Shown one piece after another: positions 4,469 through 38,243 of a DNA stretch of 57,337 nt; positions within the stretch are counted from its first letter, which is position 1; each line of letters starts with the position of its first letter. The position numbers and the translations under genes were made by a program. The DNA is from Candidatus Pacearchaeota archaeon (GTDB taxonomy: Archaea > Nanobdellota > Nanobdellia > Pacearchaeales > GW2011-AR1): positions 1-57,337 of the forward strand of contig JAVHOF010000037.1 of NCBI GenBank assembly GCA_036169915.1. The letters are read 5' to 3'. The notes beneath the pieces are model-generated. The model was not told the origin of the DNA and searched no databases. It was given only the letters and a program-made list of their open reading frames with translations.

Positions 4469-4882
4469 CTATTTCTTAATTTTCAATTCATCAACCAACT
4501 TTCTAACTCTTTTTTTAATATTATCAACCCTTTTTCTAATTCCATCAATATCTTTTTCATCGCAATCTTTTATTTTCCACCATATTATCTTTCCACTATA
4601 GCTATTTTTAAAAAATTCAGGTTGAACATTATTAGCAACAATGATAATCATATTATAATCATTAATTTTTTTAACATCAACTCTTCTTGGAACTCCTCCA
4701 ACCACATAACCTTTTGCTTTCATGATCTTGATAACACTTTCAGAAACATAAAGATGCATTTCATCGATTAAAATTCCAGAGCTTTCAGCAACAATCTTCT
4801 TGTTTTTATTCAATGAATTAAAAATAGCCTCTCCAACTTTGCTTCTAAACCTATTATGTTTGCAGATAAATAAGATTTTCAT
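4469..4882 (-). CDS. Low-molecular-weight phosphotyrosine phosphatase / ArsC-like phosphatase
   Basis: MKILFICKHNRFRS carries the C-x5-R-S P-loop signature of LMW-PTPs. I prefer the ATG at 4882 over 4906 because it directly follows the upstream stop codon. Confidence 0.75.
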   Translation of the reverse strand: MKILFICKHNRFRSKVGEAIFNSLNKNKKIVAESSGILIDEMHLYVSESVIKIMKAKGYVVGGVPRRVDVKKINDYNMIIIVANNVQPEFFKNSYSGKIIWWKIKDCDEKDIDGIRKRVDNIKKRVRKLVDELKIKK

Positions 4883-4883
4883 G

Positions 4884-5216
4884 TTAATAATAAAATCTCC
4901 TTTCATAATCTTTATGATTAAACCATTCTAATATAACTGATAAAATTTCCACCCTATTCAAAGGGTTTAAAGTATAAATCAATCTCCAGCCACTAGGTAA
5001 ATCATATTTCCATAAATTATTTATTTTGTATTTTATAATATATTCTCTAGGAAAAAGTCTTTTAGGAATTTGAATTCCACAATAAGCATTAATCTGCATA
5101 TCGAGTATAGCCCTTTTAATTGATTTTTTCAAATCATCATTATCATCAAGTTCTCCAAATGCCTCTTGAATTCTGTCATTAGCAAAAACAACTTCAGAGG
5201 ATTTTAGGATTCTCAT
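4884..5216 (-). CDS. RelE/ParE-superfamily toxin-like protein
   Basis: The C-terminal pattern NLWKYDLPSGWRLIYTL...VEILSVILEWFNHKDYERRF resembles the RelE/ParE core (LW.YR.G.YRIIY...I..I.H...Y). The gene overlaps the upstream gene by 1 nt. Confidence 0.5.
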   Translation of the reverse strand: MRILKSSEVVFANDRIQEAFGELDDNDDLKKSIKRAILDMQINAYCGIQIPKRLFPREYIIKYKINNLWKYDLPSGWRLIYTLNPLNRVEILSVILEWFNHKDYERRFYY

Positions 5217-27612: not shown

Positions 27613-29007
27613 TTATTCTAATCTCCTTTCAAGTATTTTTTTTATTGTTTGGAAATTTGCACGCTTATTTGTTGCGTGCATGACTTGTCCTATTAAAAAA
27701 TTCAAAGCTTTAGATTCTCCTGCTTTAAAATCTTTAATTGATTGCTGGTTCTTATTTATAATTCCATCTATTATTTTTTCTAACTCTTTTTCATCTGAGA
27801 TTGATTGTGATTGTTTTGCTTCCTGCATTGGTGAAAAGGATTTTGGAATAAATTTTCTTAAAATATCTTTAGCTTTTAATGGTGTTATTTTGTTATCTTG
27901 CAATAGATTTAATAGTTCTATTATATGCAGAGGATTAATTTTAACTTTATCCATTGTTTTTTTATTATAGTTTAAAACGCCTAACCATTCTATTGTTATC
28001 CATGGAAGAGCTATTTTAGGAGATATTTTTTCAGCAACACTTTCAAAAAGTTCAACAATCTCAAGATTTTTAGTAAGGACTTCTGCATCTTCTTTATTCA
28101 GTTTATGTTTTTTGACCAATTTGTCTAATTTTTCCATAGGAGATTCAGGAAGATTTTTTTTAATTTCATCAATTCTTTGTTTTGTTATTTTTAAAATAGG
28201 CAAATCAGGGTCTGGAATAAATCTATAATCTTGTGCTTCTTCTTTGCTTCTCATAAGTTCTGTTTTTCCTGTTTCAGAATTCCATCTTCTTGTTTCTTTT
28301 GTTTTAGGTTTTTCTTTCTCATGTCTTGAAATCTCTGAATTTATAGCTCTTACAATTTCAGTTATTGAATTAACATTTTTTATTTCAGCTCTTTCTGAAA
28401 TTCCTTTAATATTAACATTAACATCTGCTTTTATTCCTGCGTCTTTGTTAAGTGCTTTGATATATGATAATGTTAATACTAATTGTCTTAGCCAGTTTTC
28501 AACTTGTTCTGCATTTTTAAAATCAGGTTCTGTAACAATTTCAACTAAAGGTGCTCCTGCTCTATTGTAATCTATTTTTCCTGTTTCAGGATTCCATGCA
28601 GCAGGATCTTCTTCTAAATGTACTTCTCTTATTTTTATTCCTAAAAATTCCCCATTTTCAGCAACAGGAATTGAATAGGCTCCTGAAATTGTTTTTTGGT
28701 ATCCTGTTGGCATGTCTGGCCAATTGTAGTGTTTTCTTTGAAAAATCAGAGGTTTTTTATTTTCAATTATATTTGCATTGCAGTTTAGCATTAGCCCTAT
28801 TTGAAGAATTTTATCAACAGCTGACTTATTTGGAAGCATTGGTTTTGCTCCTGGCTGTCCAGTGCATATTGGGCAGATGTTTTCGTTTGGTTCTATAATC
28901 TTCATGTCATGAAAATTCCTGCAAGTGCAGAAAAGCTTTTCATCTGTATCTATATATCCATGAATTTCTAAACCTATCATGGAATCAGTTTCTTTTTTAT
29001 GTTCCAT
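27613..29007 (-). CDS. gatB: Asp/Glu-tRNA amidotransferase subunit B
   Basis: Motifs include IGLEIHGYI...KLFCTC, CPICTGQPGAKP and EVHLEEDPA, with a C-terminal YqeY-like tail. The start is ambiguous (29025, 29007 or 28980). Confidence 0.9.
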   Translation of the reverse strand: MEHKKETDSMIGLEIHGYIDTDEKLFCTCRNFHDMKIIEPNENICPICTGQPGAKPMLPNKSAVDKILQIGLMLNCNANIIENKKPLIFQRKHYNWPDMPTGYQKTISGAYSIPVAENGEFLGIKIREVHLEEDPAAWNPETGKIDYNRAGAPLVEIVTEPDFKNAEQVENWLRQLVLTLSYIKALNKDAGIKADVNVNIKGISERAEIKNVNSITEIVRAINSEISRHEKEKPKTKETRRWNSETGKTELMRSKEEAQDYRFIPDPDLPILKITKQRIDEIKKNLPESPMEKLDKLVKKHKLNKEDAEVLTKNLEIVELFESVAEKISPKIALPWITIEWLGVLNYNKKTMDKVKINPLHIIELLNLLQDNKITPLKAKDILRKFIPKSFSPMQEAKQSQSISDEKELEKIIDGIINKNQQSIKDFKAGESKALNFLIGQVMHATNKRANFQTIKKILERRLE

Positions 29008-29065
29008 AAAAAATAAAGAAAACATAAGTTTAATAAAGTTTCTTTATGTAAAAATTTAAACAAAA

Positions 29066-30608: not shown

Positions 30609-31058
30609 ATGAAAAAAACAAAAAACAAAAAAATTTTGATTTTTTTTATTGGGATATTCTTTTTATTTATATTTTTATCTTTTGTTTCTGCTGATGAAAT
30701 ACAGGCTCCAAAGGGAAATGAAATAGTACCTCTTGTTAGGGGAGATAATCTAGGAGTATTAATGTCTCCAGATACAACCTATACTCTTTATTATATTGCT
30801 GATGGAAAATCTGCAACAATACAATATAGCGAATCTTTTGCATCTTACTTTTTTGGAAAAAGGAATAATGAGAAATCTCTTATTGCAATGAGTATTTATT
30901 ATGCACCTTGGTTTGATCAAAAATATACTCTTGTTAAAAATACTGGAATAGATCTTTTTACTCAAAAAACAAGCCTTCTGCAAACTAAAGGTGTTTACAA
31001 GTTTGAATTTAAATGTTATGGGCACAATTGGGCTGCTGTTAATTTTAAAGTATATTAA
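30609..31058 (+). CDS. Secreted hypothetical protein
   Basis: A signal or anchor peptide is present: KKILIFFIGIFFLFIFLSFVSA-DE. Confidence 0.5.
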   Translation: MKKTKNKKILIFFIGIFFLFIFLSFVSADEIQAPKGNEIVPLVRGDNLGVLMSPDTTYTLYYIADGKSATIQYSESFASYFFGKRNNEKSLIAMSIYYAPWFDQKYTLVKNTGIDLFTQKTSLLQTKGVYKFEFKCYGHNWAAVNFKVY

Positions 31059-32592: not shown

Positions 32593-32666
32593 AAAAGACA
32601 TTAAAAAGGATATGAAAAATGAAAATTCAAAATTTAATTGAGTGTAAGGAGGTAAATAAAAAACAA

Positions 32667-34760
32667 ATGAAAAATAAAAATTTATTTTTAATTTTGGGAA
32701 TTGTTTTAGTTTTAATTTTGTCTGGATTTGTAAGTGCGCTTGCAATAGGTGACAAGGTGGAAGTGTATAATACTGGAAACAGTGGATTGCTTGTTCTTAG
32801 CCCTAATGCTTGCAGTTCTTCAATTGGAGTTAAATTTAATGGAGCAAGGGGGACTATTACAGCTGGTCCTATTTATTGCAGCTCTTATAATCGCTGGAAA
32901 GTTACATGGGATGGAGGTCCTACTGGATGGAGTGCTGAAAATTGGTTGAGAAAAGTTGTTACTTGCACCAATCAATGTTCATCTGGACAAATAAGATGCA
33001 ATGGATATTACAAACAAAGCTGTATTTCCAGCAATGGATGTTGGATATGGGGTGGAGATACTTATTGCAGTAATGGATGTGCTTATGGACAATGCCTTGG
33101 TGGTTGCACTCCAAAAACATGTTCTCAACTTGGAAAACAATGTGGAGCATGGGATAATGGTTGTCAGCAATCAATAGATTGTGGAACTTGTTCTTCTGGT
33201 AAAACTTGTTCAAATGGACAATGTGTAAGTGGAGGAAGTTTGCCTACTTCTATAATCTCGCCTGTTGATGGTAATCTTGAGATTGTCAATACTTTAGGCG
33301 CTTGTTCAAATACAAAATGGTGTTTTAATCAACATAAAACAGGAGGGCATGTGCCAGGTGGAGGAATATGTAAGGCAGATGATACTTATGCTTGGGATGC
33401 TAATCTTAATTTTCCTAGTCAAGATTCTGATAAAGGTAAACCTGTTTATTCAGTTGCTTCTGGAGTTGTCACAAGTCTCTATGGAGGATGTACAAATGCC
33501 GGAGGGTCTTATGGGCAAGTATTAATTGAACATAATTATAATGGAAATAAATGGTGGAGTGGATATTTACATATGGGAAATATTCAAGTGAAAACTGGAC
33601 AGAGTGTAAACGAAAATACAATTTTAGGGTATGTGTCAAATACAGGAGTATCTGATGGTAATAATCATTTACATTTTGTAGTCTATAAAGGTTCTAACAC
33701 TAATGGAGGGTTAGTATCATTTAATTTAAACATAAATCCTAGAAATAATGGTTGTACTCCTCAATGTTCTGGAAAACAATGTGGAAGTGATGGATGTGGT
33801 GGAAGTTGTGGCAGTTGTTCTAATGGAAAAACATGCAATTCAAATGGACAATGCGTTACTTCATGTACTCCAAAAACATGTTCTCAACTTGGAAAACAAT
33901 GTGGGGGATGGGATGATGGATGTCAAAAATCAATAAATTGTGGCAGTTGCTCTAATGGAAAAACATGCAATTCAAATGGACAGTGTGTAAGTGGTTGTAC
34001 AAATCAATGTACTTATAAAACCAATAGATGCAATGGACAAAATTCAGAATATTGTACAGATTATAATGGTGATGGATGTTCTGAATGGATTGTACAAAGA
34101 GTTTGTGATTATGGGTGTAACAATAATAATGGTTTTTGTTATATGTGTACTCCTAATTCAAAATATTGTTATGGAAATTGGATTATGAAATGTAGTTCTG
34201 ATGGTTCTAGCGCGAGTGGAGATACTTATTGTAGCAAGGGATGTAATAATGGGGCTTGTATTAATAGTTGTACTCCAAATTGGAATTGTGGAGCTTGGTC
34301 AACATGTTCGAATAATCAACAAACAAGAACATGTACAGACTCTAATAATTGTGGAACAAATAATGGGAAACCTGCTACTTCGCAAAGTTGCAGTGCTTCT
34401 GGAAATAACCATAATTCAGATTGTACATTTATAACAAACATTCAACCAGCAGGATCAACATGGGTAATAGAAGATTATCTGAATTCTCCGGATGGAAAGA
34501 AATGGTTAGCAATGGATATAACTGGTGATGGAATTAAAGAAATATTTGGTTATATGAGTGGTTCAAGTACTGATTCATGCCCACCAGATAATATTTATTG
34601 GCACACATCACCAATTTCTGCATTAGGAGGTTTTATGCTAAAATATTATTATTCTTCAAACAATATTGAAAAGCAATTATTTGTTTGTGATAATAATAGA
34701 TTTGCAGCATACTCTTCGACCCGTAATATACCAACAAACCCTGACATTAGTTGCCCATAA
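32667..34760 (+). CDS. Secreted Cys-rich multidomain protein with an M23 (LytM-type) peptidase-like domain
   Basis: GGAGG lies about 13 nt upstream of the ATG at 32667. A signal peptide is followed by an SH3b-like N-terminal domain. The M23-like core is [11 protein letters not shown]...YGQVLIEH...WWSGYLHM...[17 protein letters not shown]. Repeated Cys-rich modules ([35 protein letters not shown]) are also present. Confidence 0.8.
33105..33992 (+). repeat. Repeated Cys-rich module coding units inside the M23-like gene
   Basis: Near-identical DNA (..ACTCCAAAAACATGTTCTCAACTTGGAAAACAATGTGG..) starts at 33105 and at 33864. A shorter related module lies at about 33753-33863. Confidence 0.8.
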
Positions 34761-34870
34761 ATTAATTTTTCTTTTTCTTTTTCTTCTTTTTTTCATTCTA
34801 CTTCAGTAATTACAATTTAAATATATTTTATATCAACAATCTTTAAATAATCTGATTGTTATTTTAGTAC

Positions 34871-35374
34871 ATGAAAAGAGGCTCAAAGAAAATAAAAAAG
34901 AGTGAGAAAAGTGAAGATGGAATTCTAAGTTATGAAATTATAGATAATACTCAGAATATGACTGATAGCAGCAATAGTTTTGATAATAGTTCTTTTGAAA
35001 AACCAAAAGAATCTATGGAAAGTCCTAATAAGCCTTTTAATGAAACTCAATTGGTAATGGAGCAAAAACCTAATAATGAAAAGAAAAGTCCTGTTAAAAC
35101 TCTTGTTATTCTGATAATACTTATTTTATTGGTTGATGCTATTTTTCTTTTTGCATATTTAAAACCTGATTTAAAAACAACATTATCTAATTTTTTTAAA
35201 CCTAGGGTTGTTGATAATCCAAGTTCATTAAAATGCAATGATGGAACTCCTTATAATTCATGCGCAAAAAATAAACCTTATTATTGTTATAATGGAGAGC
35301 TTTTGAAAAGCGCATATAATTGTGGGTGCCCTGAAGGATATAAAGTAGCTTTCCAAGATTGCAAGAAGATTTAA
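34871..35374 (+). CDS. Membrane-anchored protein with a C-terminal Cys-rich domain
   Basis: The central TM helix is LVILIILILLVDAIFLFAYL. The C-terminus is CNDGTPYNSCAKNKPYYCYNGELL..CGCPEGY...C. Confidence 0.5.
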   Translation: MKRGSKKIKKSEKSEDGILSYEIIDNTQNMTDSSNSFDNSSFEKPKESMESPNKPFNETQLVMEQKPNNEKKSPVKTLVILIILILLVDAIFLFAYLKPDLKTTLSNFFKPRVVDNPSSLKCNDGTPYNSCAKNKPYYCYNGELLKSAYNCGCPEGYKVAFQDCKKI

Positions 35375-36944: not shown

Positions 36945-38243
36945 ATGAAAAAACCTTTTATTAAGCCAGAACCAGGAGATAAAGTTGAAGTGCTTATAAA
37001 TAATAAAAGAGAAACAGGAATTCTTTTGGAGTCGCATGATTCTGGAATTCTTTTATTGAAACTGGATAATGGTTATAATCTTGGACTGAAAAAAGAAGAT
37101 ATTTCTGAAATAAAAGTCATTGAAAAAGGTAGGATAGAGGAAAAAACTGAAGCTAAATTTGAAATATCTCATAAAAAACCTATTATTGATTTTATTGTTG
37201 TTGGAGGAACTATAACAAACAAACTTGACCCTAAAACCGGAGGAGTGACTAATTTGATTAATCCTCAGGAATTATTTTTAGTTTATCCTGAGGTTTTTCA
37301 GTTTGCAGATATAAGAATTCATAATCCTTTTATGAAAGCAAGCGAGAGCATGAATTTTCTTGATTGGATTAAAATAGCCAAGATTGTTGAAAAAAGTTTG
37401 AATAATGAAAATGTTAAAGGGGTTATTATTACTCATGGAACTGATTTTTTGCATTACACAGCAGCTGCATTAAGTTTTATGCTTCCTAATTTAAACAAGC
37501 CTGTTGTGCTGACTTATTCTCAAAGGTCAAGTGATAGAGGTAGTGCAGATTCAAGATTAAATCTTATCTGTTCTGCGCATGCAGCTCTTAGTGATATTGC
37601 AGAAGTAATGATTGTTGGACATGCAACAATAAATGATAATTATTGCTATGCTCTTTCTGGAACAAAAACAAGAAAAATGCATACTTCAAGAAGAGATACT
37701 TTTCGTGCTATTAATACAAAGCCTATTGCAAAAATTTTTCCAGATGGAAAAATTGAATCTATTAAAGAGTATAATAAAAGAAAATCTGGAAATTTTAAAA
37801 TAAAAACTGATGCGGTTTTTGAACCTAAGGTTGCTTTAGTAAAATTTTATCCAGGGCAAGATCCTAATATTTTAGATTATTATAAGAAAAAAGGATATAA
37901 GGGGATTGTGATTGAAATGTGCGGGTTAGGACATGTGTGCACTGAAGGAAAATTCAATTGGTTACCTAAATTAAAACAAATAATAAGCTCTGGAATTTTT
38001 GTTTGCGCTGCTCCACAGACATTATACGGAAGATTAGACCCTTATGTTTATGCTCCTCAGAGAAAGATTTTGGAAACAGGAGTTGTTTTTTTAGAAGATA
38101 TCTTGCCAGAAACAGCATTTGTAAAACTTGGATTTGTTTTAGGACATAAGATATGGAGAGGAAGTGTTGCTACTCGTGTAAAAATGCTTGAAAATATTTC
38201 AGGAGAATTTAATAAAAGATTAGGCAATGAGTTTTTGGATTAA
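36945..38243 (+). CDS. gatD: Glu-tRNA(Gln) amidotransferase subunit D
   Basis: An N-terminal small beta domain (GDKVEV...) is followed by an asparaginase fold (GGTI, ITHGTDFLHYTAAALSF, and a C-terminal domain). Confidence 0.9.
   Translation: MKKPFIKPEPGDKVEVLINNKRETGILLESHDSGILLLKLDNGYNLGLKKEDISEIKVIEKGRIEEKTEAKFEISHKKPIIDFIVVGGTITNKLDPKTGGVTNLINPQELFLVYPEVFQFADIRIHNPFMKASESMNFLDWIKIAKIVEKSLNNENVKGVIITHGTDFLHYTAAALSFMLPNLNKPVVLTYSQRSSDRGSADSRLNLICSAHAALSDIAEVMIVGHATINDNYCYALSGTKTRKMHTSRRDTFRAINTKPIAKIFPDGKIESIKEYNKRKSGNFKIKTDAVFEPKVALVKFYPGQDPNILDYYKKKGYKGIVIEMCGLGHVCTEGKFNWLPKLKQIISSGIFVCAAPQTLYGRLDPYVYAPQRKILETGVVFLEDILPETAFVKLGFVLGHKIWRGSVATRVKMLENISGEFNKRLGNEFLD

Follow-up and report, generated by a model that had tools for sequence, protein, structure and literature searches.

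The present report concerns one gene in a 57,337-nucleotide (nt) contig of a Candidatus Pacearchaeota archaeon (JAVHOF010000037.1, hereafter the window), in which a single plus-strand open reading frame (ORF) at positions 32619-34760 encodes a protein of 713 amino acids (aa), or 697 aa when counted from Met17. The central 173 residues of this protein have a genuine M23 metallopeptidase fold and, judged by sequence, are a member of a discrete and strongly conserved M23 subfamily, and they are likely to form an active zinc metallopeptidase. Secreted, horizontally acquired M23 wall hydrolases are already known as a class in archaea. What appears to be new is the subfamily itself, with an apparently displaced zinc histidine and an extra subdomain, its conservation and enrichment in hosts that lack murein, and a head-swapping Cys-module scaffold in the Pacearchaeota lineage.

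The M23 domain and its first metal motif

The Pfam model Peptidase_M23 (PF01551) matches aa 271-359 (profile positions 11-91 of 96) at E 2.7e-14 and with a score of 53.5 bits, the cut-off being 28.7, and a six-frame scan of the genome recovers the same domain at 57.5 bits. Searches of the Protein Data Bank (PDB) by phmmer and by profile match only M23 enzymes, namely Csd1/TagE, LytU, ShyA, zoocin A, lysostaphin, DipM and LasA. An AlphaFold model of aa 205-377, built from a 39-sequence alignment, has a pLDDT of 92.7 and a pTM of 0.90. Foldseek returns 59 PDB matches for this model at E<=0.001, and the best 50 of the 59 are all M23 structures (probability 1.0, TMq 0.37-0.54). Among the matches listed, the most complete superpositions are those with beta-lytic protease (8af1, TMq 0.54 over 176 columns), ShyA (0.53) and LasA (3it5, 0.52 over 170 columns), and the E-values of both Foldseek and HMMER put peptidoglycan-acting M23B enzymes first. 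A sequence-only reading of the window had proposed an M23 peptidase-like domain in an archaeon, to be checked with a hidden Markov model (HMM) search; that search gave a match over the curated cut-off, and the contig itself is placed among the DPANN archaea by the relatives of its GatD protein. The M23 hallmarks named in that reading, including NHLHF, are likewise where it had put them.

Its assignment of the domain to the LytM/lysostaphin type does not stand in detail. An exhaustive HMMER search with the 173-aa domain against 1.84 billion cluster representatives (50%-identity clusters) matched 167 clusters at E<=1e-30, 320 at E<=1e-10 and 3542 at E<=1e-3. The top band of matches spans the entire domain at 48-78% identity, whereas ordinary M23 proteins match only the C-terminal core of ~100 aa. 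Members share, in order, the elements SPVxG, (K)WCFNQH, G.H, GGGI, DxGKPVYA..G.V, WWSGYLH(L/M), IQV..GQ.V, T.(I/L)GY(I/V)S, HLHFVVYxGxN and GGLxSF(D/N)..I..R, the first of which (SPVxG...WCFNQH...GH...GGGI) lie in an extra conserved N-terminal subdomain of ~65 aa. The N-terminal 78 aa of the domain have no significant sequence match in the PDB, where only chance ones (tau repeats, a fimbrial subunit) were obtained. Neither Pfam nor NCBIfam holds a model dedicated to this subfamily, and the best NCBIfam matches are generic and far under their cut-offs.

The first metal motif sets the subfamily apart. The usual HxxxD is absent, as the sequence-only reading had observed, and TYAWD stands in its place at aa 256-260 (from nt 33384), with Thr256 at the position of the canonical His. 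In 87 subfamily sequences this position is occupied by T, S, G or R and in none by His. The Pfam alignment starts at profile position 11, and therefore the HxxxD end of the profile is left unmatched. Eight residues are invariant in all 87 sequences (His244, Asp260, His305, His318, His350, His352, Tyr356 and Asn360), whereas at position 255 there is Asp in 85 sequences and Glu in two, and His239 is His in 79. The invariant pattern is also kept in members of 35-45% identity from Bacteroidota, Acidobacteriota, Planctomycetota and others. The loop that separates His239 from His244 is not of constant length (the homologue P0004 is one example), but its 'GH' is kept throughout. The description of the first motif as atypical is thus correct in that the canonical form is missing, and the site is most likely displaced rather than lost, with His244 as the ligand in an H(x)15D arrangement with Asp260. 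An alternative Asp ligand would be Asp255, giving H(x)10D. Asp260 is favoured because it is invariant and because it ends a small-hydrophobic-Asp pattern (A-W-D compared with the canonical G-[IVL]-D). When the canonical M23 domain of the homologue P0003 is aligned by MAFFT, its HxxxD falls ambiguously within +/-3 residues of either Asp. In the profile search of the PDB, LasA was aligned only from its residue 36 (profile positions 65-158, E 6.6e-7), a range that does not cover His244. HMMER aligns His318 with the YAHL/YMHL histidine of zoocin A, DipM and lysostaphin.

Two cysteines, Cys251 (33369-33371) and Cys291 (33489-33491), occur together in 49 of the 87 members and are both missing from 36, with two mixed cases. 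They would therefore form an optional disulfide tying the loop between His244 and Asp260 to the loop that follows the GxV strand, and such a bond may be taken as an independent sign of a folded extracellular domain.

Family M23 is defined by H(x)nD together with HxH, with documented values of n of 3, 7 and 12; spacings of 7 and 12 occur in the active enzymes phi29 gp13 (H(x)7D) and LasA (H(x)12D), respectively (PMC9662197). With the endopeptidases of PF01551 (LytM, lysostaphin, zoocin A, ShyA and Csd1-3) the window protein has in common the core beta-sheet fold, the GxPVxA...GxV strand pair, the (V/I)xIxH, YxH(L/M) and HxH motifs, an HMM score above the curated cut-off and a secreted, modular build, and with lysostaphin also the pairing of M23 with an SH3-type targeting domain. 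It differs from them in having no HxxxD and an invariant His 15 residues before the Asp (or 10 with D255), in its additional subdomain, in the WWSGYLH and HLHFVVYxGxN signatures and the optional disulfide, and in its archaeal host, in which no murein synthesis genes were found. Like the M23A enzymes (8af1, LasA 3it5 and pseudoalterin 6ik4) it would have a long H(x)nD, together with a length of ~175-180 aa, secretion and disulfides, and the M23A structures give the most complete superposition on its model (TMq 0.52-0.54). However, the sequence likeness to M23A is confined to the common M23 core, and the Foldseek E-values are no better than for M23B.

Cys-module scaffold and exchangeable heads

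The M23 domain is carried within a chain of Cys-rich modules, preceded by a basic N-terminal domain and followed by an acidic C-terminal one (Table 1). The modules number seven, three of them of an 8-Cys type (S1, nt 33105; S2; S3, nt 33864), and the mature chain contains 62 Cys. S1 and S3 are 84% identical as protein, and the direct DNA repeat at 33085-33208 and 33844-33967 brackets the M23+S2 block. The sequence-only reading had described three copies of such a module, two of them almost identical as DNA; the three copies are there, and 'almost identical' overstates an identity of 83% over 124 nt. The CTNQC... and CTPN... modules it listed were recovered as L1 and L2 and as L3 and T, respectively. 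Of its thrombospondin-like motif, the string W..CS....R.C is present but a thrombospondin likeness was not confirmed: TSP_1 (PF00090) gave no match at E<=10 for aa 458-600, and the resemblance is confined to a short string, WSTCS..QTRTC. The Cys modules, the T module and the C-terminal domain match no Pfam family, apart from a sub-threshold match to LNR/Notch, and a search of 120 other genera of the host's family gave no copy of the C-terminal domain.

For the N-terminal domain, an SH3b-like nature had been proposed, and here fold and sequence give different answers. No Pfam match, SH3_3 included, was obtained at E<=10 for this domain or for its two closest homologues, nor was there a PDB sequence match. 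The AlphaFold model has block pLDDT values of 86-94 for aa 41-110 (the second module of the modelled piece is of low confidence), and its Foldseek matches are almost all SH3 or SH3b domains, among them YorP (2heq), LytB (4q2w), the phiSM101 endolysin (4krt) and CPE1231 (2kt8), with probabilities of 0.8-1.0, TMt of ~0.6 and weak E-values of 0.04-0.5. In addition, the domain is 42% identical to aa 73-142 of the protein P0228, which overlap a sub-threshold SH3_3 match of that protein (E 0.094). An SH3-like fold is thus supported by the model, and the tie to the SH3b family would consist of this fold and a weak, transitive sequence link.

Comparison with homologous metagenome proteins shows that the scaffold carries different heads. 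In P0005, the same signal peptide is found and L1-S1 is joined straight to S3, L2, L3, T and the C-terminal domain, without M23; aa 114-204 of the window protein (P0001) correspond to aa 189-281 of P0005, and aa 404-712 to aa 271-584, at 54-58% identity. With P0005 as the reference, the M23+S2 block (aa 205-403) of the window protein is thus an insertion, flanked on its two sides by the copies of the S1/S3 direct repeat, a pattern that recombination between repeated module DNA would produce. The head of P0005 is weakly GH73-like (Pfam Glucosaminidase E 0.008, with an AKLEGQFG motif), and P0006 combines a GH73-like head with a subfamily M23 domain. In P0003 a canonical M23 (HIGLD) accompanies the SH3-like domain, the modules and the C-terminal domain, and P0004 has a different N-terminal beta domain. 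Taken together, a scaffold with swapped heads looks like a polymorphic family of secreted enzymes. No paralogue with a glucosaminidase head was found in the host's own genome, where the one candidate, a match of 27.8 bits lying just under the cut-off on contig C193, proved to be an unrelated ORF of 252 aa.

Distribution and probable function

The subfamily is scattered across both prokaryotic domains. Its profile found no member in 24 other species of the host's genus and, at E<=1e-20, none in 400 high-quality genomes of the phylum; a few genomes of the same order show only generic M23 cores. Among one-per-species genomes 38 loci carry the subfamily, of which eight are archaeal (six in Methanotrichaceae/Methanothrix and one each in Methanoperedens and Methanoculleus), three belong to Dehalococcoidia and two to Moranbacteria of the Candidate Phyla Radiation, with the rest spread over at least 10 bacterial phyla. 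The nearest named relatives of the M23 domain, at 64-66% identity, come from Methanotrichaceae and Dehalococcoidia. Close metagenomic relatives are few (P0002, P0004 and P0006). P0004 is encoded on groundwater contigs, where its gene occupies the same GatB...GatD locus and immediately precedes GatD, and its M23 domain is 78% identical to that of the window protein compared with 71% for the GatD proteins of the same two contigs. Against this syntenic orthologue the M23 domain gives a dN/dS of ~0.17, with dS ~1 and near saturation, and is under purifying selection.

In a quick, unrooted maximum-likelihood tree, the window domain groups with P0004, P0002, P0006, P0124 and P0138 (SH-aLRT 91), and this group is nested in a poorly resolved, short-branched cluster of Methanotrichaceae, Dehalococcoidia and Poribacteria-type sequences. 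In the tree as a whole, only bacterial sequences occupy the long deep branches, and support for the deep branches is weak. The phylogeny proposed earlier as a check for bacterial origin accordingly fits horizontal spread with a probable bacterial origin, with the reservation that the tree, being unrooted, names no donor and that its deep branches are weak. A horizontal origin is also indicated because the congeners and the 400 phylum genomes lack the subfamily and the nearest named relatives are Methanotrichaceae and Dehalococcoidia. Recent transfer judged from base composition was considered and rejected, as the GC content at third codon positions (GC3) of the gene is host-like (0.16 against 0.20 +/- 0.07 for the genome). 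Searches of 50,697 phage and 72,556 plasmid records gave no full-length member of the subfamily. The sole copy found on a mobile element (L067, 1069-2010) is a divergent member on the Pseudoalteromonas xiamenensis plasmid NZ_CP072134.1, which reads H..DDTYAIDLN, PWFSGYMHM and DHLHFAIYSG. It has a PPC pre-peptidase domain as its fusion partner, and a tyrosine recombinase is encoded ~840 bp upstream of it, with a small ORF between.

We judge it somewhat probable, from the company the domain keeps, that the enzyme cuts bacterial peptidoglycan. The catalytic head would then be a zinc M23 endopeptidase in which the His of HxxxD has moved to the upstream loop, with His244, Asp260 and His352 as zinc ligands and His318 and His350 as a general base or water-activating pair. 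The basic SH3-like domain would probably dock the enzyme on its target, the seven Cys-rich modules may act as a rigid stalk, and the C-terminal domain is common to sister proteins that bear other heads. Peptide cross-links of bacterial peptidoglycan would be cut outside the archaeal cell, and the purpose could be the lysis or opening of bacteria, either neighbours or hosts, or the scavenging of wall peptides. The catalytic domain itself would have been acquired horizontally; in this lineage it would have entered a Cys-module scaffold that already existed, at a point between two repeated S modules.

Bacterial peptidoglycan is favoured because the subfamily is fused elsewhere to wall-hydrolase domains (NlpC/P60, Glucosaminidase, GH25, Phage_lysozyme, Hydrolase_2 (SleB) and Amidase_6; P0007 and P0030 were checked), because the other heads on the DPANN scaffold are of wall-hydrolase types, because an SH3-type domain combined with M23 recalls lysostaphin, and because the host genome has three ORFs with SLT lytic-transglycosylase motifs (22.8-24.8 bits against a Pfam cut-off of 21.3) and no detected penicillin-binding protein (PBP) transpeptidase or Mur ligase. 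These SLT-motif ORFs may be additional murein-directed genes in an archaeon in which neither a Mur ligase nor a PBP gene was detected. Several points weigh on the other side. The GH73-like heads of P0005 and P0006 are sub-threshold (17-18 bits against 30.2), and that of P0005 has no match in the PDB; the Asp ligand is ambiguous between D260 and D255; no recognised peptidoglycan-binding Pfam domain occurs in the protein; a second wall-lytic domain accompanies only ~7 of the ~95 members among those listed; and, as the host genome is 84% complete, the absence of Mur and PBP genes is not proven.

Other points that count against a peptidoglycan substrate also speak for a rival, fairly unlikely in our estimate, in which an active M23 protease would act on protein, either Gly-rich or structural proteins of the surroundings or the envelope of an archaeal host (S-layer, sheath or pseudomurein peptides), for attachment, for opening a cell-cell bridge or for feeding. 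The M23A enzymes LasA and pseudoalterin also cleave elastin and other proteins (PMC9662197), and it is M23A structures, beta-lytic protease and LasA, that cover the model most completely. Most partner domains of the subfamily are generic protein-protein interaction repeats (TPR, HEAT, LRR, PKD, beta-helix) or other proteases (caspase, C13), and the subfamily is frequent in organisms without murein, with 8/38 loci in methanogen or Methanoperedens archaea and 3/38 in Dehalococcoidia. Cultured DPANN are episymbionts of archaea (PMC8204110), and the known hosts of DPANN are archaea and not bacteria. Against a protein substrate stand the muramidase, glucosaminidase, NlpC/P60 or amidase heads fused to some members, the exchange of the head for a canonical M23 or GH73-like domain on the DPANN scaffold, and the rank of peptidoglycan-acting M23B enzymes in the Foldseek E-values. 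Nothing was found in support of pseudomurein as the target, and the known pseudomurein endoisopeptidases, PeiW and PeiP, are cysteine proteases.

Loss of catalysis altogether, with the domain serving as a ligand binder or hydrolase activator of the degenerate LytM type (EnvC, NlpD, DipM, SpoIIQ) and the zinc site abolished, would agree with Thr256 at the canonical His position, with the unmatched HxxxD end of the Pfam profile and with the presence of EnvC and SpoIIQ among the fold and sequence matches. Those factors resemble the window protein in having an M23 fold that departs from the canonical metal motifs. However, they lack several ligands and are inactive regulators, whereas the window protein keeps all but the His four residues before the Asp: H318, H350, H352 and D260 are invariant, the substitute His244 is invariant in 87 sequences across phyla, and the high identity across domains of life (55-78%) points to strong constraint on the active site. 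With the spacings in LasA and phi29 gp13 also known from active enzymes, we regard a non-catalytic domain as improbable. An error of assembly or binning that placed a bacterial gene in an archaeal genome is more improbable still. It would accord with a family that is 97% bacterial (PMC9662197) and with an assembly of 212 contigs with 2% estimated contamination, but the gene is in the central part of a contig of 57 kb, with archaeal GatB on one side and the archaea-specific GatD on the other, its GC3 fits the genome, an orthologue occupies the same GatB...GatD locus in independent groundwater assemblies, and the Cys-module scaffold is common to other ORFs of the host genome.

The favoured reading, a secreted hydrolase of bacterial walls, has precedents. 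Archaeal peptidoglycan hydrolases, including M23 proteins in Halobacteriales and in four Nanoarchaeia genomes, kill bacteria (Strock et al. 2025, PMC12352652), and Pacearchaeota and Woesearchaeota encode large extracellular murein lytic transglycosylase proteins, read as a sign of interaction with bacteria (Castelle et al. 2021, PMC8204110; Vigneron et al. 2022, PMC9723730). The window protein resembles both groups, for instance the Halogranum zoocin A homologue 'Woldo', in being a secreted, horizontally acquired wall hydrolase of bacterial type with a patchy distribution, domain shuffling, a proposed use against bacteria and no detected murein synthesis genes. The M23 proteins of Strock et al. 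pair a canonical M23 with a wall-binding domain recognised by Pfam (PG_binding_1), whereas the window protein has another M23 subfamily on a Cys-module stalk. Under their definition of a modular hydrolase (a Pfam catalytic domain plus a Pfam wall-binding domain), PF01551 is present and a wall-binding domain was not detected; the protein would escape their Pfam-based screen because it has no wall-binding domain that Pfam can recognise.

Gene context and implications

The probable start codon is ATG 32667 (Met17), since it is preceded by AAGGAGGT, since a signal peptide results, and since the N-termini of the closest homologues coincide, P0002 and P0005 beginning with an equivalent MK(T)KNK. Kyte-Doolittle analysis shows no hydrophobic segment other than the signal peptide, and the protein is probably exported by the Sec route. 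The coordinates of all features are given in Table 1.

Table 1. Features of the M23 gene, its surroundings and related ORFs of the host genome (window coordinates unless a contig is named).
Feature	Coordinates	Strand	Basis or remark
Small secreted 149-aa protein	30609..31058	+	No Pfam match; possibly associated with the M23 gene
Shine-Dalgarno-like AAGGAGGT	32646..32653	+	5' of probable ATG 32667; read from sequence
Signal peptide, Met17-Ala40	32667..32738	+	n/h/c regions, VSA/LA cleavage; inferred from sequence
N-terminal SH3-like beta-barrel, aa 41-113, pI 9.1	32739..32957	+	AlphaFold and Foldseek
Cys modules L1 (aa 116-162, 8 Cys) and S1 (aa 163-204, 8 Cys)	32964..33230	+	Module identity matrix
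Direct DNA repeat	33085..33208 and 33844..33967	+	83% identical over 124 nt
M23 metallopeptidase domain, 173 aa, aa 205-377	33231..33749	+	Pfam, AlphaFold, Foldseek
His244, proposed first zinc ligand	33348..33350	+	87/87 His
TYAWD, aa 256-260	33384..33398	+	At the HxxxD place; Thr256 at canonical His position
His318 (YLHM), counterpart of LytM His260	33570..33572	+	87/87; 32 residues before H350
His350-Leu-His352, HxH	33666..33674	+	Both His 87/87; aligns with HLHF of solved M23 enzymes
Cys modules S2 (aa 379-415) and S3 (aa 416-458)	33753..33992	+	Module identity matrix
Cys modules L2 (aa 460-509), L3 (aa 510-550) and T (aa 551-592, WSTCS...QTRTC)	33996..34394	+	Kept in P0002, P0004, P0005
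C-terminal domain, aa 596-713, acidic (pI 4.6), 4 Cys	34404..34757	+	43-58% identical in P0002-P0005
T-rich tract, possible archaeal terminator	34761..34798	+	Directly 3' of stop codon; read from the sequence
SLT-motif ORFs, 233-281 aa, ..ES..G(L/I)(M/F/I)Q..	C137:1526-1666, C64:3513-3671, C64:29922-30059	-	Just over Pfam cut-off
Large Cys-rich ORFs	C141:12156-20531, C120:33368-36664, C36:4381-6831, C75:37114-39705, C97:2-3571, C141:892-2595, C2:8624-10399		

The gene lies in a variable region bounded by GatB (27613-29025, minus strand) and GatD (36945-38243, plus strand). GatD, which is archaea-specific and has a GatD_N domain, is situated 2 kb downstream on the same contig, and its closest named relatives (68-79% identical) come from metagenome-assembled genomes of Nanoarchaeota, Nanoarchaeia and Pacearchaeota; the host is therefore placed in Nanoarchaeota/Pacearchaeota (DPANN). 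The M23 gene is kept both in the window and in L040, the related groundwater contig with the orthologous gene, whereas a receiver-like ORF, a 380-aa Cys-motif ORF, a membrane protein, Pterin_4a, a protein with sigma70_r4 and a helix-turn-helix (HTH) and a zinc-finger-like (zf-like) ORF are present in the window only. No operon partner is conserved across phyla, and the only conserved neighbour is the 149-aa protein shared with the DPANN orthologue contig, where a 159-aa ORF of 60% identity (L040, 7520-7996) lies immediately upstream of the M23 gene. This protein may be a conserved partner, either a co-secreted factor, an inhibitor or a chaperone. Directly downstream of the M23 gene, a membrane protein of 167 aa (34871-35374, plus strand) has a small Cys-rich extracellular C-terminal end (CNDGTPYNSCAKNKPYYCYNGELLKSAYNCGCPEGYKVAFQDC); it has no Pfam match and was not seen beside the orthologue in L040.

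The host genome (1.56 Mb, 30% GC) has seven more large Cys-rich ORFs of 567-2791 aa, with 6-10% Cys and essentially without Pfam matches, and Cys modules seem to be what its secreted or surface proteome is made of. Contig C193 (~6.4 kb), which carries the Glucosaminidase-like 252-aa ORF, also encodes a CCA-adding-enzyme-like ORF and several zinc-ribbon-rich ORFs, and looks like a virus or mobile element and not like core genome. Elsewhere in the subfamily, the Methanothrix/Methanotrichaceae versions are small and secreted, with a signal peptide followed directly by M23 (~200-270 aa; L003 3893-4522, L004 and P0123). In L003, a second ORF in tandem (4548-5120) clusters with the M23-gene family. 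Such small versions are convenient for biochemistry and could serve as new lytic enzymes.

A broader joint reading, which we hold tentatively and regard as doubtful in its entirety, is that of an undescribed, exceptionally conserved cross-domain subfamily with a displaced zinc His, traded horizontally in sediment and groundwater and over-represented in hosts without murein (Methanothrix, Methanoperedens, Methanoculleus, DPANN and Dehalococcoidia), in which the enzyme could act only outwards. In the DPANN lineage the domain would be one interchangeable 'warhead' on a secreted stalk, the others being a canonical M23, a GH73-like domain or two heads together, with a shared C-terminal domain and with the repeated Cys-module DNA as the recombination substrate for head exchange. 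Such a system would be the archaeal equivalent of polymorphic antibacterial toxins.

Should the enzyme act on bacterial walls, it would add a testable weapon or host-access tool to the few archaeal anti-bacterial enzymes known at present, and would do so in the DPANN, whose partners and lifestyles are mostly unknown. It would also mean that screens built on Pfam catalytic plus wall-binding domains miss enzymes of this kind. The subfamily is, in addition, a natural experiment on how far the M23 zinc site tolerates the relocation of a ligand.

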